Position numbers and translations under genes: made by a program. A stretch of DNA of 61,892 bases, from assembly GCA_964580065.1 (NCBI GenBank), contig CAZOJE010000004.1, forward strand, positions 1-61,892, written 5' to 3'. Each line of letters opens with the position of its first letter. The stretch's first letter is position 1. Origin of the DNA: an uncultured Candidatus Saccharibacteria bacterium (GTDB lineage Bacteria > Patescibacteriota > UBA1384 > DTJR01). The notes under the pieces are model-generated. The model was not told where the DNA came from. It ran no database searches and saw nothing but the letters and a program-made list of their open reading frames with translations. Below are positions 2,453-30,576 of this stretch, one piece after another.

Positions 2453-2542
2453 GGAGAGGTGTCTGAGTGGTCGAAAGAAGCACACTGCTAATGTGTTGAG
2501 CTCGCAAGGGCTCCGTGGGTTCGAATCCCACCCTCTCCGCCA
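2453..2542 (+). tRNA. tRNA-Ser (anticodon GCT), class II with long variable arm, CCA encoded
   Basis: The acceptor is GGAGAGG/CCTCTCC, the anticodon stem is GCACA/TGTGT with loop CTGCTAA, the variable arm is GAGCTCGCAAGGGCTC, and the T arm is GTGGG-TTCGAAT-CCCAC. Confidence 0.9.
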
Positions 2543-2547
2543 CGAGA

Positions 2548-2571
2548 AGTCGGCTGTAAGCCGGCTTTTTT
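2548..2571 (+). terminator. Intrinsic terminator after tRNA-Ser(GCT); an identical second copy lies at 2741-2764
   Basis: The stem agtcggct/agccggct has a 3-nt loop and is followed by TTTTTT. Confidence 0.6.
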
Positions 2572-2684
2572 CGTGGCGGAAAGCCGCCCAGGATTCGAAG
2601 GCCGGACCGAGCGAAGGCGAGGGAGGCGGGGTCGCGCAAAAAATCAGCAGATTTTTATGCGTGACCGAATCCCACCCTCTCCGC

Positions 2685-2725
2685 CATGTACCAGGCCAAA
2701 ATCTTCGATTTTGTCGCGGTACATG
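2685..2725. repeat. 41-bp imperfect palindrome (hairpin with internal bubble) between the two 144-bp units
   Basis: The sequence is catgtacc-aggcc-aaaatc-ttc-gatttt-gtcgc-ggtacatg. A second copy at 61842-61882 has the inverted internal orientation. Confidence 0.75.
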
Positions 2726-2917
2726 GCGACGCCAACGAGAAGTCGGCTGTAAGCCGGCTTTTTTCGTGGCGGAAAGCCGCCCAGGATTCGAAGGCCGGAC
2801 CGAGCGAAGGCGAGGGAGGCGGGGTCGCGCAAAAAATCAGCAGATTTTTATGCGTGACCGAATCCCACCCTCTCCGCCAGAGCAGGTTTGCCGACCTTTA
2901 TGGTCGGCAAATGTGCT

Positions 2918-2950
2918 TTGGCGGAAAAATGGAGAACGTGGGATTCGAAC
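2918..2950 (-). other. Inverted, degenerate tRNA 3'-end-like fragment (not a functional tRNA)
   Basis: The reverse complement reads gttcgaatcccacgttctccatttttccgcca. It has a T-loop and CCA end but no matching 5' acceptor strand or intact T stem. Confidence 0.35.
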
Positions 2951-3097
2951 ACGAAAGGGGTCGGGAAAACGATCGTTTCCCTGTTACAGAAAAAAATTTG
3001 AAGCCCTTCGGTTTTTAAAAGGCCGCAAAGACATCTTATCGCCCGCAAAAAAGATTTTTATAAAGATCGATTTTATCTTGATTTGTAAGTTCTTCCA

Positions 3098-4129
3098 TCA
3101 ATCTTTGAGTTTGTAGTAGGTTGCCTTGCCGCGGCCTAACCGTTTGATTAGTCTTAATCCAATCAATCTATTGAAATCTTTATTTCGCGTTGCCTTAGCC
3201 CGATCGGTTAACTTAGCATAATCACGGTCAGCAATAAAGCCGTTTTTATTGATAAAATCAATGATTTTTTGATCGTGTGGTTTGATGGCAGTTAAGGGCG
3301 AAGCGGATTCTTTGTCTAACAGTTTATTAACCCGCAGGAGTTCGTCAATAATTCCGTCGGTGAAATATTCGAGCCAGACCGTAAAATCAATTTTGTCAAC
3401 CAGCTCGTAATAATTTCCTCGAATACCGACATTCTCAAAATATTTTGACACATTCTGATTGTAATAATTTTCGAAACTAAATAGATTAAATGTGTTAAGC
3501 CCCATATCGGCTAATAAAACTTTCGTTGCCAGTCGCGCCGTGCGGCCGTTGCCGTCGATAAAAGGATGAATAATCACGAATTGCTTGTGAAAAATACCAG
3601 CCAAAATTAACGGATCGAGATGACTTCTATTTTTCTCGATAAACCCAATCAAGCCGTTCATTAGTTTGCTAACTTCTTGCTGATCTGGTGGCAAATAGAC
3701 GGTTTTGCGTGTTCTTGGGTCGTTAACGAAAACCGGGTCTTGGCGAAGCTTGCCAGAATTTTGTGGGTTGACTAAACCGTCCGTAACAATTTTCTGAATT
3801 TTTAAAATCAGATCAAGATCAAACCTGACCGATTTATCACGGATTTTTGTATCAAGTAATTGCAGGGCTTGGTTGTAATTGATAACTTCCTTTTCGCTAT
3901 TGCGAAGATTCTCTGGCCGGTTTTTGATAATTCTTTTAACATCGGTTAGCGGAAGCGGATTGCCTTCGATGCTGGTCGAGGAGTGCGAGGAAATTTCCCG
4001 AGCAACCTTTTCAAACTCAACCAAAGTTAGGCGGGGAAAATGGCGATTGTTCAAATCAGCAATAATTATCCCTATTTTTTTAATATTCTCCAGGAGCTTT
4101 GGCGTTACTGTAAAATTTGGTTCAAACAT
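3098..4129 (-). CDS. Fic/DOC family protein (probable AMPylase), class II with intramolecular inhibitory motif and C-terminal wHTH-like tail
   Basis: The Fic core motif HPFIDGNGRTAR is present. An N-terminal STSIEG matches the [S/T]xxxE[G/N] inhibitory helix motif. The ORF is 343 aa and AT-rich like the host genome. Confidence 0.85.
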   Translation of the reverse strand: MFEPNFTVTPKLLENIKKIGIIIADLNNRHFPRLTLVEFEKVAREISSHSSTSIEGNPLPLTDVKRIIKNRPENLRNSEKEVINYNQALQLLDTKIRDKSVRFDLDLILKIQKIVTDGLVNPQNSGKLRQDPVFVNDPRTRKTVYLPPDQQEVSKLMNGLIGFIEKNRSHLDPLILAGIFHKQFVIIHPFIDGNGRTARLATKVLLADMGLNTFNLFSFENYYNQNVSKYFENVGIRGNYYELVDKIDFTVWLEYFTDGIIDELLRVNKLLDKESASPLTAIKPHDQKIIDFINKNGFIADRDYAKLTDRAKATRNKDFNRLIGLRLIKRLGRGKATYYKLKD

Positions 4130-4280
4130 TTTCCTCCATTGTTATATACTAATGATAGACGATTAGTAGACGAATATCAAGGATGAGAGAATGCCGAAAT
4201 AGCTGCAAAAAGTTCTCAATATGGTAGTATTTAAGTAATGAAAATTTCAGCAAGATGTTTTTTATTTTAATCAAACACTG

Positions 4281-7200
4281 ATGGGGGAAGAAAAGGACTT
4301 AGGCCTAAAAGTCAAAGAAACTAAACCGGGCAAAAACCAGCCGGATACTTCGAGCGTAGATTCGGACGTAGCAGAAAGGGATACTGCGGAGATTGAAATT
4401 CTGGAAACTCCAGATACTGGAGAAGATGGTTTTCGGCAATATTGTCGATCACACTTTGAGCAAATCTTTGACACGAGTGCCGAAGACCATCAGACCGAGA
4501 GAAGTTCTTTGCAACGCAATGAAATATGGGAGCTAGAAAAACAGGCCAAACAAGATTTTCAAATCAGAAATCCCCAAATTGCCCAAATTTTTCTCGAGGA
4601 ACTAATAAATTTTTCACTGGAAAAAATTCGCCAAGGATTGGCTGACAAGCTTGAACCTTTTGTAGAAAATATTTACAATTCCTATTTTTACATTTCGCCC
4701 AACATCTCAAATGATGCCTATTTTGAAGAAAAGCTTCGTTTAGCCGCTAAAATGATAAGTATTCCAGAACTAGAATTTCTTATTGGAAGAGATTCTGTCG
4801 GAGAAATCATGGTTGATATATCGTTTGGAACCGATAAAACAATCGAAATTATTATCCAGCGGATACTTACTTCACCGATTGATGAAGCAATTGCCATGAT
4901 CCAAATGATTAGAAATGCGGCAGTTCAGGGGCGTAATATGGGCGACTTCACTTTTGAAGGCATCGAGCGTCTTGAAAAAATTGTGGCTGTCGTTCAAGAA
5001 GGTTATTCTTCTCGTCTTGTCAAATACAGCTGTGACATTTGCCTCGAACAAATTGAAAAATTGTGGAATGAGGATTTTTCTCAAAGTACTCGCGAAAGAG
5101 AATCGATTGAGCAGAGACGATTGAGCGACGAAATCCTCTCCAAAGTCGAGCTCGACCCCTCTTTGCAACGGCCCATTATTATTAAGGTTGCTGAAGATTT
5201 TGTTGCTGCCCTAGACCGCAACATGCTACCGATAAACTATGGCAAAATTGATTTTAAATTACTTGAAGAATCTGATCCTGCCATCAGCGCTCAAACTATC
5301 TACGAACTCGAAGAAATGCTTGAAATAGCTCAAAGAGGATATAAGACCAACCTTCATTCTCTCTTGGATTTAATTCAAACAAGAGTTGTCTCTGGAATTC
5401 TAGGCCATCAGGCAAGCCGTGAGGAAACAGCCAAATTTCTTTCGCAAAATTTCGATTTTTTCCCAGAAGCAAAATTTTTAGAATTGCTGGAGGCAGATCA
5501 AAAAATTCGTTCTTTTTGGGACACGGTCTCCGAGAGATATCTTCTCGCCTACTTGGAGGCAGAAGATAAAAATAAGGCAATTTCGGAAAAAGCGATCGAG
5601 TACTATTCCAAATGGCTTGCCGAATTCGCCACCAAAAAAAACAATGGGCTTTCCCCTGTAAAAAGCGATAAATTTTTTAAGTATCAAAAAGAGGGAAATC
5701 AGGAAGGGGCTTTTTCTATTGCGCAAAACAACGCTGATTTTTTAGCGTTCCTTCAAGAAAATGAATTGCTTCTAGACGCCAACAATAACGACGTTTCAAA
5801 TTTAATCAGTTATTTTGGCGAAGTTGAACGGCAGCATGATAGAAACAAAAAAGAGGCCAACGATTCTGCCGAAGAATATATTAAAACATTAAAAGCATCT
5901 CACGCGAAATATGCTGATTTGCTGATACTGTACGACGAAATAATTCAGATAAAATTGCCGGAGATTCTCTCCAAATTGCTCGAAAAATGTCTTCAGAGCC
6001 AAAAAGAAGCCGCTCAAACCGTTAAACTTAATCGAATTGAGGCCGTTGACTTAGACAAAGGAATAAACCCTTTTGGCAAAAATCAGGAAGAATATGATTT
6101 TCTAAAAGTTCTCTGGACACCCGGAATGATCAGAAAAATCAACCTTGAACTAAACGGGGTCGACCAAACATGGCCCGGCCAGGATCCTGAAGGTTCGTAC
6201 GTTGACATCAGAGACCTGAACGTTGCCTCTCAAGTTCAGCTACTGCGCTTCTTGATGTCTTCTCCTGATGAAACTTTTGATCAGCTCCAAGATGTCCTGC
6301 GGAAAAACCAAGACTTTGCTCAACAAATTCTGCAAAGCTTTCTCTCCTGTAGCGAAGATATGGGGCAAGGGCAAAAAATTATTGAAATCGTTCAAACCAT
6401 CGGCCCTGACTCGCGAATAATCTTTGAAAAATACAGCGAAGTTGTCGAAAGAATAGCCAAAATTGAACAGTTTCTCCAAGATAACTTTTCACCAGAGTCT
6501 GCCATCGACAGTCAATCCGTTGTTCGAGAATTGCTGACCGAGGCAAGAAACAGCATTCTTTCTTTCGACGTTTATAATAATCGCGAGATTTTCTTTAAAA
6601 AAATCGAAGATCTTAACGTAAGTCTGCTCACCCTCAAAGCCACCTTTTTATACTGTAAAAAGTCGGGGATTCTACCAAAACGTGAAGAAATTCTCCTCCA
6701 AGAAACAGTCGTTTCGTCTGGTCAGGAAATACCTGAAGAAGAAAAAGACAAAATGCGCGAAATCGCCAAGAAAAATTGGCAAGAAATATCTGAATCAATC
6801 TATCGAGTAGTAGCTGAATATCTCGAGAAAGGATTGGCCGATCCAAACAATCGCTTTTATCGAACAAAATATGATGGCAGAATAATCGCCTTTCAGCAGT
6901 TCACTCCCCAGCCCGACGGCTCCCTGTACGCCTCTTCTAACAACATTAACCCTGACATTCGCGGAGCCGGTCTCAACACCGCTATAAATGCTGAAATTTT
7001 AGCCAAAGAAGCCGAAAGTGCCCCTGTTAGGGCAGACGTTTGGGCCGCCAACCGTGTTTTTCAGCATTATTTAGCCGGAGATGGTTTTGTGGCCTGCCAG
7101 TACCATGAAGATTTTCACGGCACTGGCGAATCGTTTTTCGGAATGCTCTTAGACAAGAAAAACAGGGTAATTAAGGTTGATAAGAGCGAAACCGTTAAAA

Positions 7201-7364
7201 TGGCCTTTGATCCGTCCGATCACGGTACTTTGGAACAAATTGGGCGAATGTTTGAACAGGGTTATGTTATGACCGCCGTCTCCTTCGATAAAAAAACGGC
7301 TACTTTAGCCAGGGCCGAAAAAGTCAGCTCTTGGTTCCTGTCTCTTCCGCCGAATTCCAAATAA
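4281..7364 (+). CDS. Large (1027 aa) acidic, mostly helical hypothetical protein with a possible C-terminal GNAT-like acyltransferase fold
   Basis: The ORF is long, uninterrupted and has host-like AT-rich composition. The C-terminal 200 aa (IAFQQF...NPDIRGAGLNTAINAEIL...FVACQY) loosely resembles GNAT motif A. Nothing else was recognised. Confidence 0.7.
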   Translation: MGEEKDLGLKVKETKPGKNQPDTSSVDSDVAERDTAEIEILETPDTGEDGFRQYCRSHFEQIFDTSAEDHQTERSSLQRNEIWELEKQAKQDFQIRNPQIAQIFLEELINFSLEKIRQGLADKLEPFVENIYNSYFYISPNISNDAYFEEKLRLAAKMISIPELEFLIGRDSVGEIMVDISFGTDKTIEIIIQRILTSPIDEAIAMIQMIRNAAVQGRNMGDFTFEGIERLEKIVAVVQEGYSSRLVKYSCDICLEQIEKLWNEDFSQSTRERESIEQRRLSDEILSKVELDPSLQRPIIIKVAEDFVAALDRNMLPINYGKIDFKLLEESDPAISAQTIYELEEMLEIAQRGYKTNLHSLLDLIQTRVVSGILGHQASREETAKFLSQNFDFFPEAKFLELLEADQKIRSFWDTVSERYLLAYLEAEDKNKAISEKAIEYYSKWLAEFATKKNNGLSPVKSDKFFKYQKEGNQEGAFSIAQNNADFLAFLQENELLLDANNNDVSNLISYFGEVERQHDRNKKEANDSAEEYIKTLKASHAKYADLLILYDEIIQIKLPEILSKLLEKCLQSQKEAAQTVKLNRIEAVDLDKGINPFGKNQEEYDFLKVLWTPGMIRKINLELNGVDQTWPGQDPEGSYVDIRDLNVASQVQLLRFLMSSPDETFDQLQDVLRKNQDFAQQILQSFLSCSEDMGQGQKIIEIVQTIGPDSRIIFEKYSEVVERIAKIEQFLQDNFSPESAIDSQSVVRELLTEARNSILSFDVYNNREIFFKKIEDLNVSLLTLKATFLYCKKSGILPKREEILLQETVVSSGQEIPEEEKDKMREIAKKNWQEISESIYRVVAEYLEKGLADPNNRFYRTKYDGRIIAFQQFTPQPDGSLYASSNNINPDIRGAGLNTAINAEILAKEAESAPVRADVWAANRVFQHYLAGDGFVACQYHEDFHGTGESFFGMLLDKKNRVIKVDKSETVKMAFDPSDHGTLEQIGRMFEQGYVMTAVSFDKKTATLARAEKVSSWFLSLPPNSK

Positions 7365-8169
7365 ATTCAAAAATTGATCTTTGGATCTCACAAATTGTGG
7401 CATCTTCAATAATTATACCCATCGCAATCCCGGGTTTTAAGGTGTGAAGAGCGTATTTATTGTCATAAATCTGAATGCTAGTGGCAAAATCCGAAGGTTT
7501 CAGCTTGGCTATCCTAATCTCGGTTAGCCCTTCGAGACTCCCACCTTGATACCTTTGGCAATATTTACGGGTAAAGGGGCTATCGGGAAAAATCACCCTC
7601 TTTTTGATATTCAACATTTTTCTTTGTTTCAGGTAACGTTCATTTTCGGCATGGAGAAATTTTTCCAAGGTTAAGGGGTCGATTATCTGGATTATTTCCG
7701 TTTTTGCCGTTAAGGTGTCGTTCATCATTCGGCGCGCCCCTTCTTCTCCTTCAAAAACCTTAACACCGGGTTTGTGATAGGAGAGATTATAGGTTGATAA
7801 GATAGCCGACATCGCGCCTGAAAGCTCCTTTTTAACCTGTGTAAGCTCCTTGGTACGGTTTTCAACATATTCATCGAGCTTTCCAGGGTGCTCCAGCTTA
7901 AACCGTTTCCAGCCATTTGTGGCGGTTTCTTCCACTAATCCTTTTTTGATTAAGGAGTAGATCTGGTTATAGCCATCACCACGCTTAAGGTTTGCTAACC
8001 TGATTATCTCACCCGCCCCTAGTTCGCCTTTTTCAAGCAAAATCATAAAAATCACGGCCTCTTTTTCACTCAATCCTGCTCGACTTAGAAGCTCGCTGTA
8101 ATGAACTTTGCTAACGCTGGCGGCGGTAGGTCCGTGTGTTTTTGACAATTTTGTTTGCGTTTTTTTCAT
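7324..8169 (-). CDS. TrmB-like winged-helix transcriptional regulator
   Basis: The N-terminal wHTH (LSEKEAVIFMILLEKGELGAGEIIRLANLKRGDGYNQIYSLIKKGLV) is followed by a C-terminal domain of about 170 aa, the typical TrmB-family architecture. It converges on the 1027-aa gene with a 41-bp overlap. Confidence 0.7.
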   Translation of the reverse strand: MKKTQTKLSKTHGPTAASVSKVHYSELLSRAGLSEKEAVIFMILLEKGELGAGEIIRLANLKRGDGYNQIYSLIKKGLVEETATNGWKRFKLEHPGKLDEYVENRTKELTQVKKELSGAMSAILSTYNLSYHKPGVKVFEGEEGARRMMNDTLTAKTEIIQIIDPLTLEKFLHAENERYLKQRKMLNIKKRVIFPDSPFTRKYCQRYQGGSLEGLTEIRIAKLKPSDFATSIQIYDNKYALHTLKPGIAMGIIIEDATICEIQRSIFEFIWNSAEETGTKS

Positions 8170-8176
8170 TGTGAAT

Positions 8177-8218
8177 ATTGTAATATTTTTTGCTTATTTT
8201 GTCAATATTTTTTGACAA
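8177..8218 (-). promoter_or_regulatory. Sigma70-type promoter of the TrmB-like gene (leaderless) with an overlapping palindromic operator candidate
   Basis: On the - strand the promoter reads TTGACA (8200-8205), a 17-nt spacer, then TACAAT (8177-8182), with the ATG 7 nt downstream and no SD. A perfect inverted repeat, ttgtcaa-N6-ttgacaa (8199-8218), covers the -35 element. Confidence 0.6.
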
Positions 8219-8332
8219 CTTTTTGCGAAAATTTATAAATATATGGTTAAAATAGTTTATTCGTCTCCGTAAAAATCAAAGAGGTGAAAAATATAATATG
8301 AGCGTGTGGTTTGCATAGTTTGACAAAAACCC

Positions 8333-8361
8333 TTGACAAATTTACCGGCATTTGTTATAGT
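8333..8361 (+). promoter_or_regulatory. Near-consensus sigma70 promoter with no ORF downstream
   Basis: It reads TTGACA (8333-8338), a 17-nt spacer, then TATAGT (8356-8361). The supplied track shows no + strand ORF of 60 aa or more for about 580 nt downstream, and no ATG lies near the predicted start. Confidence 0.6.
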
Positions 8362-8367
8362 ACGACG

Positions 8368-9499
8368 TTACGCTGAAAGTTCAGCCAAACAAAACGGCAA
8401 ACCGCAAGCGCAACAATCGTACCTTACAAGTTATACACTCCTTCGGCCGGTGATCTTGAATAAAGATAGTCGGCCGTTGAGGAGGGGCAAAGATTTGTAA
8501 GAAGAATTTTGACAATAAGGGCCTGAAGAACGATACCGGTTCTATCAGGTTTCGGGGAAACTAATAAAAGTTTCCTTTGACTTACAAAAAGAGAGGTTAC
8601 GCCGAACGTTAAAAAACGATCTCGCGTAACCAGCCCGGACGGTTTCTATATATAATATACGAAATCGTCTACAAGGGCCTGTAAGCTCTTCTAAGGGGTC
8701 GTATTGCTCCCCTGCCGTAAAAAGCAAATGTAATACAAAGTTGCTGTCTGATTACCCTAGCGGTGATTCGGCAGCAGTCCAAGTCTCTCTTTGAGTGGTT
8801 TATTTAAGGAGGGACGTCCATAAAGGCGGCTGGTTAAGTTAAAAGCAAAACCAGCCGCTCTATGGGCGAAAAGCCCTAGAGTTTGCTCATTGGCGCTCCA
8901 TTAGGGGCCGTCAATGAGTAACGCTTGTCCGGAAGCTAAAGCCCGGCATGCGTCCTCCATTAAGGAGGATGCATGACCGGGCCCGGAATAGCTGGGTGGG
9001 GTGGCCCTTCCGCGGACCCCATTCAGTGAAAAAGGTGAAATCGGCCGGCAAAAGCCGAGCCGATAACCGCCAACGTGCGCTCAAAAGAGCGCACCGCGGA
9101 AGGGCCGGGTCAGTTCAGCGGGAGCTGACTCGGTGTTACACATTCACCCCACTTGCCGCCGTTATTAATGGCGCCAAGTGGGGCATCCCGCTCCCAGGGA
9201 GACTCTGCTTCGGCAGAGTCTCCCTAAGACTTTACAATTAGACGAGATGAGTTGAGCCGGATTGAACAATCCGACTTTATCGTGTCGGGTGCTAATTGCA
9301 TTTCGGCAATATAAGGAATCTGCTTCGGCAGGTTCTGATTGTTTGGATTTATTTGTTTCTGATTCCGACTGTCAAAAAAACAGTAGAAACTTTCGAAGAT
9401 GGAATTTATTTCCAATCGGGAAAGGTGAAACAGAAACAGTGCGGCACGAGAGCTGGTTTATTTGAAATTCGAATAAACTGGCTTCGTGCCGTTTGTGTT
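8368..9499 (+). ncRNA. Candidate large (about 1.1 kb) structured non-coding RNA of unassigned class
   Basis: The region is bounded by the promoter at 8333-8361 and the terminator at 9442-9499. It has no credible ORF despite a GC-rich core. It is packed with long, near-perfect hairpins, often with UUCG, GAAA or AAAA loops:
- ggcggctggtt..aaccagccgc (8825-8859)
- ctctatgggc-gaaa-gccctagag
- gcccggcatgcgtcctcc-atta-ggaggatgcatg.ccgggc (8941-8981)
- gggagactctgc-ttcg-gcagagtctccc (9197-9224)
A 13-bp long-range helix, ggcccttccgcgg (9003-9015) with ccgcggaagggcc (9094-9106), encloses two AAAA-loop hairpins. Confidence 0.45.
9442..9499 (+). terminator. Intrinsic terminator closing the candidate ncRNA
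   Basis: A long hairpin, cggcacga..tggtttattt..aaataaactgg..tcgtgccg (9442-9491), is followed by tttgtgtt. Confidence 0.55.
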
Positions 9500-9990
9500 A
9501 AAAAGCCCAAAGCGAGTTTGGTAAGAGCGACTAAAATTTAGCGGACATTCGAATTTGTGGCCTATGCGGTGATCGATCCGGCCGTCCTTGGCGAGGATAC
9601 GCGCGAGCAAATTGCGCGCTGTCTCTCGTCGGGGATGACCGAACCACTAATCTAGGGGCCTCGGCAAGTGGGTTTGGCACAGAAAGATCCAGCCCACCTC
9701 CAATATAACCCTGCACGACGGGTAGATCGTGCGGTCCAAGCTTGCGGACCTAAGTGGGGACCAACATATAAGCCAACCTTGATGGCAAGGAGTGAAATTG
9801 TTGGCGAGACCGCAAAAAGCAAAGTTCCAGGTCGCCTTCAGGTGACCTTAATCAGGGCCGGTATAAACCCCGGCCCTCCACTCTAAGTACAGCAGAAGAA
9901 GTTCGCGAATTGTTTCGTGATTTTCTCTGTCGTACTAGATCGTAGCTTAAAAGCGCGGTCAATCGTTATGCCAAAAAGGAGGGATACCAA

Positions 9991-10473
9991 ATGGCAGATA
10001 CGCCCTTCCTCGGGCGGCTGGCGGGGGGAGAGGCGGTCTACGACCGCTTCAACTCCCACCTCCACCCGGGGGTGGTCGAAATCCTGCCCGAGGCGCTGGC
10101 GCAAGTCAATGCTAACGGCAGGCAGTTTCTGGTCGAGGAGGCGGTTTTTGACCACCCGATCGGCCAGACGATCTGCGTCGCCACTGGGGCCGGCGATCAG
10201 GTTGTTTACGCCCAGCGCCCCAAGCGTGCTGGCCTCTCCAGGTTCGTGAGCAATCGCGAACCGGAGGAGAGCTCCAGCGTTACCGTGATCCTCAAGGCGG
10301 GGGGTCGCGGTGAGTATGTTCTGATCACCGCCTTCGTCGGGGCGCCGGCGCCGCCGGAGCCCTGGGACAGGAACGCCACCGAGCAATCGGTGCCGTTTTG
10401 GTCAACTCACGCCCTCTGTTGGGGCGCCGAGGAGACCATCCCAGGCACCGAGACGCCGGAGTGCCCCTGGTAG
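9991..10473 (+). CDS. Hypothetical protein (160 aa), GC-rich, no family recognised
   Basis: A strong SD (aaaaaggaggg) lies about 7 nt upstream of the ATG. The gene has the same orientation and composition as the downstream AAA+/VWA genes. The antisense ORF 9883..10386 looks like a GC-rich artefact. Confidence 0.6.
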   Translation: MADTPFLGRLAGGEAVYDRFNSHLHPGVVEILPEALAQVNANGRQFLVEEAVFDHPIGQTICVATGAGDQVVYAQRPKRAGLSRFVSNREPEESSSVTVILKAGGRGEYVLITAFVGAPAPPEPWDRNATEQSVPFWSTHALCWGAEETIPGTETPECPW

Positions 10474-10649
10474 TTTGTCTTTCAAGCTGACCTGCAAATT
10501 CACCGAGAGAGGCGGGTCAGCGCTTCTCTCCATGGCTGCCGTAAAGGTGATCCGCGGCCGACAAAAACGCGGGCCTCGCAAGGCGTTATCCGCCCCTTAA
10601 AGAAGGCGGGTGATGGCGCTAAAGAGGGAAAAAGAAGGGAGGCCCTAAA

Positions 10650-11726
10650 ATGGGTCTCTACGAGAAGATTCTGGCGGCTTTGTCCGCCAAGTTCGTACGG
10701 TGCGAGGAGATCGCCCGTATTCTCGCGCTGGCTGTTGCCTCAGGCAGGAACGTCCTGCTTTGGGGCCCCGGCGGGCATGGCAAGTCGGAGATGGTCGCGG
10801 CGGCTCTCGAGGTCGTCGCGGCCGAGACCGAAGTCTTCGTCCAGTCCTTCGGTGAGGGCATGGACGAGGCCACCCTCTGGGGTGGCCTGGACTTTGCTGC
10901 TCTGGAGGGCGAGAAGGAGCTCCGGTATCATCCGGAAAACTCCTTCCTCGCCAAGCGCTTCGCCGTTTTCGAAGAGGTGTTTGATGCGCCAGCGGTCGTA
11001 CTGCTTGCGCTGAAGGACACGCTCACTGCGCGCCGCTTGCGAAAAGGCGCACAGAGCTTCCCGATGACCACTCGGGTCGTCATCGGGATCACGAACCGTG
11101 ACCCGGAGGAAGTCGCTGATCTGGGACCGGCTGCTGCCGCCCTGATTGAGCGGTTTCCCCTCCAGCTCCATGTTCGCTGGCCGTCGTATAAGGCCAGCGA
11201 TTACAATTCCATGTTCGCTAAGGTCGCGCCGTCACTCCCCGGCGCTGACCTTAATGGCTCGTGCGGAGTGCTCGCCGAGCTGATCGCCAAAGCCGGCGAG
11301 GGAGATAGCCCCATCTCCCCCCGGAGCGCCGTGTACGCGCTCGGGGTAGTCAAGGCCGCGGCCGCGTTGCGCGGAGACGGCCAGGTTCACAAGGAGGACC
11401 TGGTTGACCTGCGCTTCATCGACGGCCTCGAGGGATTGGCGGATAATATCCGCCAGGAACTCGATCAGGCTTTCGAACGAGCGGCCGCCGAGGGGCGGCT
11501 CAAGGAGGCGGAGCGCAGGCTTCAGAGCCTCCTCGGCGAGTACGGGCAGGCAGACAGCCCAATCAAATGTCTGCAGGCGGCCAGGCGTTTTCTCGCCTTC
11601 CAAGACGAGGTCGCTAACCTGGCCGTGACCGACGGCCTGACCGACCGCCGGAAATCGCTGCGGGAGACCGCGGCGACTAAGGCGGCCGAGGCGCAAGCCA
11701 AGGCCATGGAAACGACCCGCATCTAG
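10650..11726 (+). CDS. MoxR-like (AAA_5-type) AAA+ ATPase with C-terminal coiled-coil extension
   Basis: Walker A is VLLWGPGGHGKSEM and the Walker B-like segment is RFAVFEEVFDA, followed by ALKDTL..R...VVIGITN. The SD gaagggagg lies upstream of the ATG. Confidence 0.75.
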   Translation: MGLYEKILAALSAKFVRCEEIARILALAVASGRNVLLWGPGGHGKSEMVAAALEVVAAETEVFVQSFGEGMDEATLWGGLDFAALEGEKELRYHPENSFLAKRFAVFEEVFDAPAVVLLALKDTLTARRLRKGAQSFPMTTRVVIGITNRDPEEVADLGPAAAALIERFPLQLHVRWPSYKASDYNSMFAKVAPSLPGADLNGSCGVLAELIAKAGEGDSPISPRSAVYALGVVKAAAALRGDGQVHKEDLVDLRFIDGLEGLADNIRQELDQAFERAAAEGRLKEAERRLQSLLGEYGQADSPIKCLQAARRFLAFQDEVANLAVTDGLTDRRKSLRETAATKAAEAQAKAMETTRI

Positions 11727-11747
11727 CGGGAGAAAGGAGGCGGAAGC

Positions 11748-13157
11748 GTGTCTTACACCTTCCGCACATCACCTCCCGCCACCTACCTCCCGCCGACGGC
11801 GGAGGAGATGCGGGTAGCGGCCGATCGTGTCGAGCTGAAAGGTTTCTCGCGCGACTTGGTCGCCGATCTGTGCAACCTGGCCGCGGGCGGGGTTGTTAAC
11901 CCCCCGTCGGCCTATCGCGCCGAAGTGACGCGGCGAGCAGAGGAGCAACTGCCAGCTCCTAACTCGAGCAACCAATGGCAGATTTCGAAGCGCGATAGCA
12001 AGGGCAAAAAGCAGACCGCCTATACTACGTCCCGCCTTGAGGCGGTCACCGCCAACGCCGAGGAAACCATGAGGTACCACCAAAATGTCTGCGATTTTCT
12101 GCAGGCGGTGGACCTTTCGGCCTTCCCCGGCACCTCGCCCCTTGAGCAGGCGATGAGTTTGCTCAAACTCCTGTCCAAGAAGCAAGGAGGACAGGGCGGC
12201 GGTGAGGGTGGCGAACCGCTTCCGATCTTCCAGGAGAGCGAGCGGCCGGAAGGTGTGGCCGAGTCGCTCGAGGACACCATGGATATGGTGGACTCACTCT
12301 CGGAGGAAGAGCAAGATATGCTCGACCCCGAGGGTCAGAACCACGAAATTGAGTCGGAGGAGAGCGATGGTCAACGTACCGGCCATAAGTCGCTCGACCG
12401 GCTCAAGGTCGCCGAAGACCTGGTCGAGGGATGTGATAAGCGGGTGATGCTCGACATCTCCCGTACCCTCGATCAGTTCACCAAGCTGCAGGTCCGTCGC
12501 CAGCGCAAGCTGGAAGCGGACCCGGCTGGTGATGAAGTCCGATCGCGGCCGATGCGCCACCTTGGGGAATTGTCCCGGGTGGCCCCGTCAAGCTGGGCAC
12601 TGCGCCAGGAGGCGCCTTCGTACTTCTTGTACAAGGCTGTCTCCGGACAGCTGCCCGTCCGCGAGCGCGTCACGAGGATTGAGCGCCGACAGGCGATCTT
12701 CATCCTCGTTGACGGCTCCGGCAGTATGCGCGGCCGGAAGCACTGGAAAGCGAGCGGGGTTGTTATGAACCGCTTGAAGGCAGTGCTCTCCGGCGATGCC
12801 GAGGTCTGGGTGAGTGTTTTTGACACCCAGCTCGGCAAGACCCAACATGCCGGAACTCCGGAGGAGGCCCGCGAGCTGATCAAGAAGTTCGCTGCGCGTA
12901 ACTTCTCCGGCGGTGGCACGGACATTGCCGCATCCATCCGCGCCGCCCACAAGTACATCGAGGACGCGATCAAGAGCGGGGCAGCATTGTATCGCCCCGA
13001 GATCGTCGTCCTCACTGATGAGGACTCCTCCGTGGCAAACCTCCGCAAGGAGGAGCTCCCGGGCACGCGAGTGCACGGGATCGCCATGGGGGTCACCAAC
13101 CCCAAACTGGTGGAGTTCGCTAAGTCCACCGGCGGGGTTGGCATCGACAAATTCTAG
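11748..13157 (+). CDS. VWA-domain protein with MIDAS motif and an acidic central linker (partner of the AAA+ ATPase)
   Basis: A GTG start follows aaaggagg by 8 nt and lies 21 nt after the AAA+ stop. The C-terminal VWA domain reads AIFILVDGSGSMRG...FSGGGTDIA...IVVLTDED (DxSxS...T...D MIDAS). The acidic stretch is DSLSEEEQDMLDPEGQNHEIESEESD, as seen in CobT/BchD/NorD-type partners. Confidence 0.8.
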   Translation: MSYTFRTSPPATYLPPTAEEMRVAADRVELKGFSRDLVADLCNLAAGGVVNPPSAYRAEVTRRAEEQLPAPNSSNQWQISKRDSKGKKQTAYTTSRLEAVTANAEETMRYHQNVCDFLQAVDLSAFPGTSPLEQAMSLLKLLSKKQGGQGGGEGGEPLPIFQESERPEGVAESLEDTMDMVDSLSEEEQDMLDPEGQNHEIESEESDGQRTGHKSLDRLKVAEDLVEGCDKRVMLDISRTLDQFTKLQVRRQRKLEADPAGDEVRSRPMRHLGELSRVAPSSWALRQEAPSYFLYKAVSGQLPVRERVTRIERRQAIFILVDGSGSMRGRKHWKASGVVMNRLKAVLSGDAEVWVSVFDTQLGKTQHAGTPEEARELIKKFAARNFSGGGTDIAASIRAAHKYIEDAIKSGAALYRPEIVVLTDEDSSVANLRKEELPGTRVHGIAMGVTNPKLVEFAKSTGGVGIDKF

Positions 13158-13836
13158 TCCGTAAGGGCGAAAGGAGGTGGCCGCGTGATACGCGGACCGC
13201 CCAGTTCGGGTCCAAGGGGTAGGACCGAGTCAAAATAATTACCCCCGATGGCTAGGCATCGATCACCTGAGCAACCCCTGATACCTCCCTAGAACGGTCC
13301 AAAGGCAGGGGCGTAACCCACCACGCACGGGGGCACACCGGTCTGGAATTATCCCGAGGTCTCACAGCGTGAGATCGTTGAAGGAGAAATTCTCGGTCAG
13401 CCGGTGACCTGTTAAACATGAAACAGGTAATACAAAATTCATGTCCGTAACAGATATTTAAGTGTTTTCATCTGCTACGAGTAGCCTCGAGAATAAAGAG
13501 GCAAAAACATTCGGGTCAGTCTAAGCCGGTAACGGCTGGCCTGTACTGCTACCGGTTCCAGGTGACGCCTTTCGGGGCGTCACCGCGCAATATTCCAGGC
13601 CGCGACTTAGGTCGTGGCATCATATCAGGGTGGTGAAAGCAATTTCATCACCCTAACCTCTTCGTGAAACTATAAGTTTCTTTTAGAAATTTAAGCTCCC
13701 CGAAGAATTCGCGGGATATCCTTAACCCTTGGGAGGATTAAAGATAAGAGTTGTAATGCTGTGGGCGGGGGATGATGCAGGAGGAAGTCGATTTCCTCTT
13801 GCAGATCTCCCAAGGCCTGAAAAGAGGTGCTGGGAG

Positions 13837-14067
13837 ATGTTTAGCCCACTCGGTCCGCTCCGCCTTTCGCCCGAGGCGGAGCAAGAACGCCGGAAGGAGG
13901 TCCTGATCAAGTTCGCCCGGCAGGTTTGCCGGGCGGAGGGGAGGGATCCCAATTCCCTCCCCAAAGCAGAACTCCTCCGCCTGTTAAAGCAGGTGGAGGA
14001 TAAGTTCGCCGACGTAGAACTCGGCGAACTTATAGCGTTTGCGGACATGCTCCGCAAACGCCGCTGA
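13837..14067 (+). CDS. Small hypothetical protein (76 aa from the preferred start), GC-rich
   Basis: The supplied ORF is 13729..14067 with a TTG start. Third-position GC rises sharply only after the ATG at 13837, which is preceded by agaggtg. A strong terminator follows immediately. The start is uncertain (alternatives at 13756 and 13729). Confidence 0.45.
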   Translation: MFSPLGPLRLSPEAEQERRKEVLIKFARQVCRAEGRDPNSLPKAELLRLLKQVEDKFADVELGELIAFADMLRKRR

Positions 14068-14912: not shown

Positions 14913-15950
14913 CTACAGTTGGGCTTTCTCCATCAGAGCCCGTACCACGGTGCGATTCTGGAAGAGAAGAAGCCCCCTTTCAGCGGAGCCATTGGGATAT
15001 TTCCCCTCGTCCTGCAGAACGGTGAAAAGCCCCGATTGGTCCATCCTCGTCTCCAGCCCAGAGAACGAGAAGGGGGGCTCAACTCTTAATCTCAAAGACT
15101 CCATAGTCCCTTCGGAAAACAATCTTCCGAAGCCGACCACCCTATTTTCCCCTTGAGGAGTGAAGACACAAAAGGCAAATTCCTTTGGCAGAGAGGGGGA
15201 GAGATGCTTGTTCTTAGTTTTGGCCCAGATAGAGCCAATCTCCTCTCGGCACCATTCCTCCTCTTGGGCGATAACAACAAGTTTGTCCGTGAAGTCCTTT
15301 GGGACAAGCACAAAACGGAAGAAGTCGTCAACGAACTCTTGAGCAAGGATCTCACAGAGCTCGTTTTCAACTCGCCATTCGATCGGCTCAATCGTAAACA
15401 ACCCCCGTGGGTCATTCACGGTTTTGGGTATCAGCAACGATCTTAGCGCGTAAGCCACCTTCGTCTTAATGGCGTAAGCACCAAGCTCCGCCATTGGTTG
15501 AGGAACCGGCAAGCACCCCCCGCGTAACAGGGCGCCGATAAATGCGTCCAAAACATCTCGCGCCCATTGGGCACCCCCAAACGCTAAGGATATAAAATCC
15601 GACCAGACGCCCGCCGGAGCCATCGCCAGTGTCTTTTTGGCGATTTCGAAACGCGTCACGGAGTCAACGAGGTCCATCGCCTCGCTGACCCACTTCACAA
15701 CTCCTGGATTGTGATAACCCAGAAAAGATTCCGGCCAGAGACCGCCATACTTGCCTTCCAGCAGCTCTCTGGCAACATAAGCCCAGATACGCTTCTGACA
15801 CATCAGAGACTGGGCGAGGCAGAAGAAAAGATCTTCTCTCTCCCTTTCTCCCCGCTCTTTGTCTGCCGTGACAATTGCCCACATTCGAGCAAACTGCTCT
15901 GGGTGATTGCCGATAACATGAAAAAGCTCCTCCCGATCTCTTTCTTTCAT
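14913..15950 (-). CDS. Hypothetical protein (345 aa), GC-rich orphan
   Basis: This is a long ORF with aaggagg 6 nt upstream of the ATG and its own terminator. No motif was recognised. AT-rich sequence flanks it on both sides. Confidence 0.65.
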   Translation of the reverse strand: MKERDREELFHVIGNHPEQFARMWAIVTADKERGEREREDLFFCLAQSLMCQKRIWAYVARELLEGKYGGLWPESFLGYHNPGVVKWVSEAMDLVDSVTRFEIAKKTLAMAPAGVWSDFISLAFGGAQWARDVLDAFIGALLRGGCLPVPQPMAELGAYAIKTKVAYALRSLLIPKTVNDPRGLFTIEPIEWRVENELCEILAQEFVDDFFRFVLVPKDFTDKLVVIAQEEEWCREEIGSIWAKTKNKHLSPSLPKEFAFCVFTPQGENRVVGFGRLFSEGTMESLRLRVEPPFSFSGLETRMDQSGLFTVLQDEGKYPNGSAERGLLLFQNRTVVRALMEKAQL

Positions 15951-28796: not shown

Positions 28797-28836
28797 TAAA
28801 AGCAACGGGGGGCGGAAGATTACACCTTCCGCCCCC
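28797..28836 (-). terminator. Terminator hairpin of the GC-rich two-gene insert
   Basis: An 11-bp stem, gggggcggaag (28808-28818) with cttccgccccc (28826-28836), is followed on the - strand by uugcuuuuaug. Confidence 0.6.
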
Positions 28837-28841
28837 GGATA

Positions 28842-29828
28842 TCAGTCACACTTCATGTCGAGGATCCTTTCGGCGATCCTCTTGGCCGCGCCCGGGTTTA
28901 CCGGGTAGCGCGGCTGCCGCAGGTCGCCGGACTCTACCAGCACGCCTCCGATCATCCGAGCGAGCTGATCGGGCACATAAGCAGCGTCGGTCAGGCCACG
29001 CACGATCGGCGGCCAGTCCGCTGTGCCGGTGTTTTTCAGAAACCGGTCTCGAGCGGCAACCGTCAGGTAGTCGATCGCCGGCACACCGATGCAGGCGGCC
29101 TCGATCGACAAAGTTGAATACGAGCAGATCACCAGATCGGACGCCTTGAGCGTTTCAGACGCCCCAAGCGGACTGATCTCGCCAATCCCCTGGTACGCCG
29201 AAGGATCAGTGCGATCCCCCGGGTGGATAGACAGGACGACCTGGAAATCGCGGGCTTGGCGGCAAGCCGCCTTTCTGACTTGCTCGCTTGCCGCGGTAAA
29301 CAGCTCGACGTTGATCTCCGTCTTCTTGCCACCCACCACCATGGCCAGGAAGACGTCTTCGGCCACGCCAAGCCGCCCGCGATACTCTTCGCGCTCCCCG
29401 GGCTTGCAGGCAAACTGCTCCCACAGGGGAACACCGCCGGCAAAAAAGCTGCCCGTTGATCCGGTGACCGCCCTGATCTCGCCCTCATCAGGCACGATCA
29501 CGAGATCGACCTCGTTCCTCAATTCCTTGAACCAAGGTCTGCCGACCACACTGAATGTGTCGGCAAACAGAACGCGGGCGCAATAGCCGGGCGCTGCCCT
29601 CAACGCCTGCATCTCAAGAGCGGCCAGCTCGGGCGAAGAGGACATGCCCGTGACGAGGACATCCTGACGGCGTACCGACTCTAGCACCGCATAGATATTG
29701 GTGATGGTGTCGGGACGGCCGTAGCCCAAGCACCGTATCACTTCACACCCCTCCTCTTCGAGGGCCTTACTTACAAAGTCAAGGTTCTTGCACGGGCCAA
29801 CGTCCACAGCCAGCAGCATCACTTTCAT
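28842..29828 (-). CDS. GC-rich GT-B-like hypothetical protein (328 aa)
   Basis: The SD ggagaggtg lies upstream of the ATG. The C-terminal half (VVLSIHPGDRTD...DLVICSYSTLSIEAACIGVPAIDY) echoes the RxHP and STxxxEA..G.P motifs of the AT-rich paralogues at 23582 and 26259. Confidence 0.6.
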   Translation of the reverse strand: MKVMLLAVDVGPCKNLDFVSKALEEEGCEVIRCLGYGRPDTITNIYAVLESVRRQDVLVTGMSSSPELAALEMQALRAAPGYCARVLFADTFSVVGRPWFKELRNEVDLVIVPDEGEIRAVTGSTGSFFAGGVPLWEQFACKPGEREEYRGRLGVAEDVFLAMVVGGKKTEINVELFTAASEQVRKAACRQARDFQVVLSIHPGDRTDPSAYQGIGEISPLGASETLKASDLVICSYSTLSIEAACIGVPAIDYLTVAARDRFLKNTGTADWPPIVRGLTDAAYVPDQLARMIGGVLVESGDLRQPRYPVNPGAAKRIAERILDMKCD

Positions 29829-29913
29829 CTAAATCACCTCTCCAGATTGACGGCACGTTTTATGCGCTCCAATGCAAGCGGAAAAACTTACTTTCCGCCT
29901 TTGGTTCTCCCTG

Positions 29914-30483
29914 CTAGCTCGGTCGATACGAGCCGAAACAGACCCGGGCACAGGGGAGAATCATACGCCGGTGATTCTCGATTATACCCGGAACTTGCCC
30001 GCTGCAGGCCGCATCGAGATCGACCCATTTCAGATCGCCAATCTCGGGGACATTCTCGATGCGCGACAGCATTACTACCTGAACAACGCTGCCGCGTTCT
30101 TCCACAATCGGGTCCTGCAGGAACGCAAGAGTTGGCTCGACCAGGTTTGCGCCGAGGAGTTCTGTCTTGGCAAGGCGCTCGAGCGCAGACCAGTAGCTCT
30201 CGCCAGGTCTCAAGAACGTTCCCGGACAGTGCCACTGGCCAGGATAGGCCGTGTCGTTGTCGGCACGGCGCTTGAGCAAGACTTCGATCGGATACTCACC
30301 GCTGACGACAACCAGCTCAATACAGCAGCTGACTGTCTTCTTGGCCACTGCGTCAAACAGCTCTGTCCCCAGCGGCGTGTCAGGCAGTGAGTTGAGAAGA
30401 GCTGCCGCCACTTTCCGCCGCTCCTCTTCATCCATTTGCAACAGTTTCTCTACCAGCTCCATCAGACTGGCATCCATTCGCAC
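29914..30483 (-). CDS. Nudix-fold protein with a degenerate Nudix box and an N-terminal helix resembling an 'addiction module component' antitoxin motif
   Basis: PGTFLRPGESYWSALERLAKTELLG aligns to GX5EX7REUXEEXGU with RE->RL and EE->TE. The N-terminus LMELVEKLLQMDEEERRKVAAALLNSL resembles the L..ER..LA..LL.SL motif. The gene is GC-rich. Confidence 0.55.
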   Translation of the reverse strand: MRMDASLMELVEKLLQMDEEERRKVAAALLNSLPDTPLGTELFDAVAKKTVSCCIELVVVSGEYPIEVLLKRRADNDTAYPGQWHCPGTFLRPGESYWSALERLAKTELLGANLVEPTLAFLQDPIVEERGSVVQVVMLSRIENVPEIGDLKWVDLDAACSGQVPGIIENHRRMILPCARVCFGSYRPS

Positions 30484-30576
30484 TCACCCTCTCATGTTAA
30501 GGTACGTCAACAAGATCGGATTATTTTATCAGATAAACCAAACGGATCAAGAGCGCAAAAAAACAAAAAGTGATGT

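Follow-up and report, generated by a model that had tools for sequence, protein, structure and literature searches.

What occupies the 1.8-kb gap between a minus-strand gene at 7324-8169 and a plus-strand gene beginning at 9991 in an uncultured Candidatus Saccharibacteria bacterium? The gap lies in a 61,892-nucleotide (nt) stretch of contig CAZOJE010000004.1, here called the window, and the plus-strand gene opens an operon for p160 (a protein of 160 amino acids), a MoxR AAA+ ATPase and a VWA protein. A preliminary description of this DNA had seen, at 8333-9499, a promoter driving about 1.1 kb of hairpin-dense RNA free of open reading frames (ORFs) and ending at an intrinsic terminator. We put at roughly 50% the probability that the p160-MoxR-VWA operon has a highly structured untranslated leader of 1.6 kb, modular and cis-acting, with this region as its front part. 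Patescibacteria genomes are very small and gene-dense, yet many still keep 0.5-4 kb of folded untranslated RNA before highly conserved genes, and the cost of keeping such a long untranslated RNA implies a function. Two independent run-level assemblies, from runs SRR9860463 and SRR9674389, show 100% identity over 6323-13947 and 9076-10677, so the region is not an assembly chimera; an alternative genetic code is also ruled out, the flanking genes being intact under table 11.

The plus strand of the region is heavily folded. Its minimum free energy (MFE) fold over 8368-9499 contains 28 hairpins, with 73% of bases paired, and the loops include two UUCG, three AAAA and one GAAAA. Plus-strand folding z-scores (z) of 150-nt windows across the gap lie between -4 and -9, whereas the rest of the window averages -0.7 (standard deviation 1.5); the region itself scores about -4.8 against the same -0.7. 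The guanine-cytosine (GC) fraction is 0.54-0.62 over 8800-9300, compared with about 0.42 for the genome. The hairpin-dense middle module, termed here the core, spans 8552-9543 on the plus strand (z -6 to -9). Inside it, a three-way junction (9003-9106, plus strand) is closed by a 13-bp long-range helix whose arms, 9003-9015 and 9094-9106, are 100% complementary, and a motif at about 9203 and about 9320 recurs with 86% identity (9201-9221 and 9316-9336). The plus strand is more stable than the minus strand by 74 kcal/mol, and its fold holds 58 G.U pairs against 17. The GC enrichment, the hairpins with stable loops, the junction and the recurring motif had all been picked out in the preliminary description and withstand closer analysis, and its assignment of the structure to the transcribed strand is borne out by the G.U asymmetry and by covariation alike.

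The helices of the core are maintained by compensatory substitutions on one strand. The comparison drew on 69 related loci gathered via the VWA protein and, in later searches, on up to 51 sources or about 73 loci (given L numbers below). Two near relatives from metagenomes carry parts of the core: L083 shares 8935-9543, in an alignment that runs on to 9795, and L084 shares 8849-9543 before passing into unrelated sequence and a different gene. Support for the core structure comes from these three sequences (window, L083 and L084), and that for the 3' domain described below from two, with low statistical power. Over 8921-9250, standard pairs fill 97.6% of pair cells, and six pairs carry compensatory double changes, where shuffles give 2.0 +/- 1.1 (0 of 500 reach six) and slid controls 0-2; in a further 17 pairs a single side changed, without loss of pairing in any of them. 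Scored against the window's own fold, 38 changed pairs in the core are kept and 18 broken on the plus strand; for the minus strand the figures are 11 kept and 31 broken. Covariation is strongest in an 18-bp hairpin at 8941-8982 (plus strand), where five pairs of L083 carry double changes and still form. The helix that closes the three-way junction has two substitutions in relatives, both C-to-U in the 5' arm and both yielding G.U pairs, and its inner hairpin (9040-9064) has been rebuilt from different sequence in L083 and L084. Across most of 9096-9543 the three sequences are too alike for a covariation test.

No broad conservation appeared in the sequences compared, the core being limited to the window and its two near relatives. 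A covariance model of 8992-9196 (R2), run over 51 sources, matches only the window, L083 and L084, and the part of the middle module at 8552-8848 has no homologue in any sequence compared. Searches of the gap by blastn, nhmmer and tblastx against 26, later 70, related loci matched only the promoter and the 5' start. Exact-pattern scans of viral contigs for two core helices gave 0 matches, and blastn of 8300-10000 against phage and plasmid collections gave none.

Could the core be decayed protein-coding sequence, that is, one or more pseudogenes? Taken literally, the region is not ORF-free: ORFs of 97, 81 and 67 amino acids lie inside it, and their presence would fit such decay. The substance of the earlier claim stands, as these ORFs have no Pfam match and the frame of the longest is not kept in homologues. 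A protein search with the spurious 97-residue ORF returned two short 'proteins', both of them ORFs called on the homologous RNA of L083 and L084; the reading frames of these matches, its only ones, differ, and the homology is therefore non-coding. At the protein level, tblastx of the gap against 26 related genome loci found no similarity, and substitutions in the core track base-pairing rather than codons. A true, truncated gene remnant, of the kind that had been named as evidence against an RNA, does exist at 9545-9652, but it lies just outside 8333-9499. A pseudogene origin of the core is thus a very remote prospect and essentially excluded. AGGAGG motifs in the region were considered as ribosome-binding sites of small ORFs and rejected, there being no start codon at a consistent distance.

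How the gap is built becomes visible in L071, the closest operon relative (p160 88% identical), which contains the complete gap. The first part, a 5' leader domain of 190 nt (8362-8551, plus strand), is common to both, with blastn identities of 71% over 8321-8406 and 86% over 8494-8551, and its long-range helix CCUUACAA/UUUGUAAG and the hairpin at 8519-8552 are kept in L071. From 9545 onward the two are again alike, at 83-89% identity. Between these parts there is no similarity (window 8552-9544 against L071 4493-5666). Where the window has its core, L071 carries 800 nt of sequence that is unrelated but equally structured (z -5 to -7), followed by an intact 160-codon gene. That an unrelated stretch is equally structured argues that the position requires structure.

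The intact gene in L071 explains the remnant. When its ORF (5295-5777) was searched against the window by tblastn, residues 125-160 matched with 86% identity, and the window thus holds the last 36 codons plus stop of an STIV-B116-like gene (9545-9655, plus strand; codons 9545-9652). The L071 gene has weak matches to Pfam PF08960 and phrog_5063, and homologues of it lie upstream of p160 in L049 and L052. Remnant and L071 gene differ, counted by eye, at 8 synonymous and 5 non-synonymous positions; the preponderance of synonymous differences suggests that the truncation was recent.

Downstream of the remnant, a 3' leader domain of 335 nt (9656-9990, plus strand) holds the Shine-Dalgarno sequence of p160 and is conserved in L071 (89%) and L083. 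Folding over 9500-9990 gives z = -6.0. Of 102 predicted pairs in this domain, none is broken in L071, 4 have changed in a compensatory way and 14 on one side only; with the window MFE fold as reference, 12 changed pairs are kept and 3 broken on the plus strand, against 7 kept and 10 broken on the minus strand. The non-coding stretch accordingly does not end at 9499, as had been thought, but continues through the gene remnant and this second structured domain to 9990. In three other close relatives, L027 and L028 (contigs of an 89%-identical VWA homologue) and L072 (86%-identical p160), the RNA is not reached or the upstream sequence differs. In L072, short palindromic repeats (GTCATCCCGCACTTGATGCGGGATCC-like) at 60-260, upstream of the p160 gene, replace the 3' leader domain.

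The pieces of this gap move independently: L071 has the 5' and 3' domains without the middle, and L084 has the middle without the downstream part. The L084 breakpoint at 9543/9544 is the same junction as in the L071 comparison. Along the alignment the three core-bearing sequences form a mosaic. At 8935-8997 the window matches L084, and L083 has diverged; at 8998-9095 L084 matches L083, and the window is 80% identical; at 9096-9543 all three are 96-100% identical; and after 9544 the window matches L083, with L084 unrelated. Such mosaic alleles indicate recombination.

These features would also fit a middle module that is passenger DNA, without function for the host and structured only through its origin. 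It could be a piece acquired through illegitimate recombination or a small, non-autonomous mobile element, and its arrival would have destroyed the B116-like gene. The gene stump stands directly at the 3' boundary of the module, the junction is sharp and identical against two different relatives, the alleles are mosaic, and the GC content differs from that of the flanking 5' leader. Passenger DNA, however, would not be held to plus-strand helices by selection, which the compensatory and G.U-only substitutions signify. Neither boundary (8552 or 9543) has terminal inverted repeats or a target duplication, no second copy exists in the 62-kb window or the approximately 73 other loci, and the equivalent stretch of L071 is unrelated and equally structured. 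Given the strand-specific compensatory changes, we regard a passenger origin as quite unlikely.

Where would transcription of this RNA begin, and under what control? A sigma-70 promoter, TTGACA-17-TATAGT with a TG extension of the -10 element, lies at 8333-8361 on the plus strand and scores 11/12, in agreement with the preliminary description. Only five 11/12 sites occur in the 62-kb window, and three of them cluster in the divergent intergenic region 8205-8361. The minus-strand gene at 7324-8169, divergent from the RNA, encodes a TrmB-family helix-turn-helix regulator (Pfam TrmB, E=4e-8), and its own promoter (8205-8177, minus strand, 11/12) overlaps a palindrome, TTGTCAATATTTTTTGACAA (8199-8218), which lies between the divergent promoters and is 95% conserved in L071 (4170-4189). 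The half-site TTGACAA is found again at 8320, at 8333, where it forms the -35 hexamer, and at 8509, about 140 nt into the transcript. Together, palindrome and half-sites are likely to be a candidate operator set for the TrmB-like protein. L006, L015, L059 and L071 retain both this promoter and the opening 25 nt of the transcript (CGTTACGCTGAAAG), and an equivalent promoter of 10-12/12 faces the operon in nearly all of 18 related loci examined.

The hairpin at the other end of the region is less clear-cut than the intrinsic terminator at first proposed. A stem of 24 bp (about -33 kcal/mol) followed by UUGUGUU occupies 9441-9499 on the plus strand, and L083 and L084 retain the hairpin (9441-9492), a single G.U pair having become G-C. 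The long hairpin is real, but the U tract is weak, and the site was missed by a strict terminator scan and found by a looser one. We read it as probably a leaky, terminator-like element. A promoter scan of the window found no promoter-like site between this hairpin and the operon, and in L084 none was found between the hairpin of the same module and its different downstream gene; a leader consequently fits better than a stand-alone gene. Inside the core, a weak promoter-like site, TCGGCA-17-TACAAT (9/12), lies at 9210-9238 and is conserved in L084 (364-392).

The window is one instance of a layout that recurs in many Patescibacteria, in which a TrmB-like gene and a consensus promoter are followed by 0.5-4 kb of structured, ORF-poor RNA and then the operon. 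At least 17 related loci have the same order, with the TrmB-like gene on the minus strand and a gap of 0.7-4.7 kb before the operon. A promoter and a long structured, ORF-poor stretch at the same place in so many loci substantiate the suspected association of the RNA with the AAA+/VWA genes. The gaps of related loci fold beyond shuffles (mean z -1.5 to -3.7), and the plus strand is more stable in every related locus by window scan and in most loci by full-length folds. In sequence they are unrelated to the gap of the window, save for the promoter and the first 25 transcribed bases, and even among loci in which p160 comes first the leaders upstream of it cannot be aligned.

Two elements recur in the sister lineages. 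Other sub-lineages show a three- to ten-fold plus-strand enrichment of the motif GGAGAGAG. In at least 10 loci its first copy lies in a hairpin loop (AAGGAGAGAG), and the first intrinsic terminator follows 40-120 nt later, with the exact complement CUCUCUCC in its 5' arm or loop. This GGAGAGAG/CUCUCUCC arrangement is found at L001 4226-4330, L006 5771-5836, L009 4023-4172, L010 5898-6020, L013 3091-3230, L015 2847-2930, L043 4764-4910 and L059 2802-2903, and also in L002 and L007; further copies of GGAGAGAG, on the plus strand only, follow along those leaders at 3-10 per kb. Lying 90-210 nt from the start site, the pair may be an attenuator of the kissing-loop or antiterminator type. The second, an element of about 150 nt that we call R1, lies directly upstream of the MoxR start and Shine-Dalgarno sequence in loci where MoxR comes first. 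It consists of GGGGACCCAAAC ... CUUGCCCCUCCCCAGGGCAAGCCCAAUC, a covarying stem with an AACAAUC loop and then GGAGG, shows compensatory changes in 9 of 25 predicted pairs and has no Rfam match. Copies lie at L001 6438-6590, L006 6510-6660, L009 6379-6531, L010 6523-6673, L012 31-177, L015 6525-6679 and L023 6646-6806, and in L031, L034, L059 and L004; the R1 covariance model found no copy in the window or L071. From these attenuator-like elements we infer that the gaps of the sister lineages may act as regulatory leaders.

Taken together, these observations suggest the following model for the window. Transcription would start at about 8368 from the consensus sigma-70 promoter. This promoter and the divergent TrmB-family gene have an operator-like palindrome region in common, and the gene product may thus control the promoter. 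The leader would comprise the 190-nt 5' domain, a hairpin chain of about 1 kb (8552-9543) closed by the 24-bp hairpin, the B116-like stump and the 335-nt 3' domain. Acting in cis, most transcripts would stop at the 9441-9499 hairpin and leave a stable RNA of about 1.1 kb, and a regulated fraction would read through. The 3' domain would then govern access to the p160 Shine-Dalgarno sequence, so that termination and Shine-Dalgarno control together could hold the operon low and conditional. The middle module would be exchanged by recombination between lineages with its helices kept; that the helices are kept though the module is exchanged suggests that fold or bulk counts for more than sequence.

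Several points weigh against such a leader. To our knowledge, 1 kb of near-perfect helices far exceeds the need of any known attenuator. Because the U tract is weak, the hairpin at 9441-9492 may not terminate, and a hairpin of such length could be a processing or stability element instead. The lineage of the window has neither the GGAGAGAG/CUCUCUCC arrangement nor the R1 element, and the analogy to the sister leaders is therefore architectural only. Finally, an own promoter, a terminator-like end, conserved helices and portability equally fit a stand-alone RNA gene.

That last possibility, a trans-acting non-coding RNA that runs from 8368 to about 9499 (about 1.1 kb) and serves as scaffold, substrate or sensor of a MoxR-VWA-p160 machine, we hold to be doubtful, though a serious contender. 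The RNA has a consensus promoter of its own and a conserved terminal hairpin, helices are held by compensatory change, the sequence is GC-enriched within an AT-rich genome, the module can move as a single unit, its size goes well beyond what attenuation needs, and a long structured RNA is positionally tied to the operon across many genomes. On the other hand, the core is absent from L071 and 48 other sources, so that this particular RNA is dispensable to the proteins. The leaders range from 0.5 to 4 kb without a common core, and the downstream genes have no promoter-like sites of their own. The protein models also argue against an RNA partner. The structure model of p160 (predicted local distance difference test score 92) has no fold match in the PDB; in the VWA model only the VWA domain has Foldseek matches, the N-terminal domain being unmatched, with nothing TROVE-like; and neither model contains an RNA-binding fold.

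The operon itself is widely distributed. It encodes p160 (9991-10473; phrog_23674, E=1e-21), the MoxR AAA+ ATPase (10650-11726; Pfam bpMoxR, PF20030, and AAA_5) and the VWA protein (11748-13157; Pfam VWA), all on the plus strand. VWA homologues 60-89% identical occur in many Patescibacteria metagenome-assembled genomes, with 60-75% identity across candidate phyla, and p160 homologues are 52-88% identical in a 40-sequence alignment. More distant p160 homologues (36-45% identical) stand alone in the jumbo-phage contigs L076-L082 (IMG/VR, 137-360 kb), with no MoxR or VWA gene nearby. The coding region is also unusually structured in the window (z -4 to -7). Across the coding regions of the operon in window 10000-13800, L071 5300-7600, L002, L006, L007, L008, L010, L016 and L022, plus-strand z runs from about -2 to -5, where their flanks give about -0.4 to -1.2, and operon coding GC lies 10-20 points above that of the host genome, whatever the host GC.

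A broader version of the trans-acting proposal would extend to the whole phylum. Here, a fast-diversifying, recombining but always folded RNA would be the sensor, decoy or substrate partner of conserved MoxR-VWA-p160 proteins in a ribonucleoprotein-type system, the hairpin array of the window would be one allele, and the operon transcript, abnormally structured and GC-rich in all lineages examined, would owe this to a function of the RNA itself. We think this rather unlikely. Were an RNA of this kind to act in trans, a MoxR-VWA remodelling machine would have an RNA partner, a connection of which we know no earlier description; were the leader model true, the gap would be an unusually large, modular expression gate, its structured modules swapped in the manner of cassettes. 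Either outcome would give a handle on a near-universal Patescibacteria system so far uncharacterised. We also know of no RNA component described for the vWA-MoxR ternary conflict systems, with which the operon is compared below.

How does this RNA relate to known families? With Rfam 15 at gathering thresholds, the whole window yields only three tRNAs; at E<=10, all matches within 8100-10100 fall far below threshold (best 22.8 bits against 55), and the gaps of 9 related loci yield nothing. The scan covered RNase P, tmRNA, SRP, 6S, OLE, GOLLD, ROOL, raiA and group I/II introns, and the RNA matches none of them. The core of the window, the R1 element of related loci and the GGAGAGAG/CUCUCUCC terminator pairing are all absent from Rfam, and a search of the literature found no description of this RNA.

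Placement among the large OLE/GOLLD/ROOL-type RNAs, which the preliminary description had suggested by size and ornateness, is not upheld, since the core occurs only in the window and two relatives and is missing from L071. Like OLE, GOLLD, ROOL and raiA, it is of kilobase scale, GC-enriched and intergenic in an AT-rich genome, rich in stable tetraloops and dense helices with some covariation support, and tied to particular neighbouring genes or islands. Unlike them, it matches none of their covariance models, lacks conserved nucleotides beyond a narrow clade, and is mostly a chain of long near-perfect hairpins in an operon leader without a downstream promoter. OLE RNA works with Oap proteins, and Y RNA with the vWA-containing Ro60. 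Ro60 (TROVE plus vWA) and Y RNA resemble the locus in that a vWA-protein gene sits beside a structured non-coding RNA, but the VWA protein of the window has no TROVE domain by Pfam or fold search, the RNA is ten times larger, and no tRNA-like match, a mark of Y RNAs, lies within the gap.

Regulatory leaders with conditional termination offer an architectural parallel. Like T-box, EAR RNA (eps operon), LoaP-dependent and riboswitch leaders, the RNA lies between promoter and first gene and includes a hairpin resembling a terminator; its 3' domain folds about the Shine-Dalgarno sequence, and in related loci a terminator loop is complementary to an upstream motif. The proposed leader of the window, however, is five to ten times longer, and between lineages its entire middle is exchanged. 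Type III toxin-antitoxin loci (ToxIN-like) share the order of promoter, structured RNA, leaky terminator and protein genes. The window, in contrast, has neither tandem repeats nor an endoribonuclease toxin, its genes being those for MoxR ATPase, VWA and p160; Tandem Repeats Finder detected no tandem repeats and a repeat search only short families, so the direct repeats of about 35 nt typical of type III antitoxins are missing. As for the proteins, the vWA-MoxR ternary conflict systems (Kaur et al. 2020, PMC7159879) likewise combine bpMoxR (PF20030), vWA and a third small protein in an island-like setting beside a tRNA gene and a Fic gene. They differ in that the window has no beta-propeller, VMAP or effector domain; PADLOC gave no match, and NCBIfam was uninformative.

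The Fic gene belongs to a stretch some kilobases upstream of the gap. In L071, a large gene (about 1030 codons) of no assigned role directly follows the tRNA-Ser gene, and a comparison of window 2453-4281 with L071 35-235 places the Fic/DOC gene of the window (3098-4129) between the tRNA-Ser gene and that large gene, where it looks like a lineage-specific insertion beside the tRNA. Two other parts of the window are locally GC-rich or strongly folding, at 15300-15750 and 28800-30500. In the first, minus-strand z falls to about -5 at 15301-15601, within an unannotated ORF of 345 amino acids. In the second, an ORF of 328 amino acids without a Pfam match occupies 28842-29828, z is about -5 on both strands at 28801, and GC reaches 0.59 over 29001-30000.

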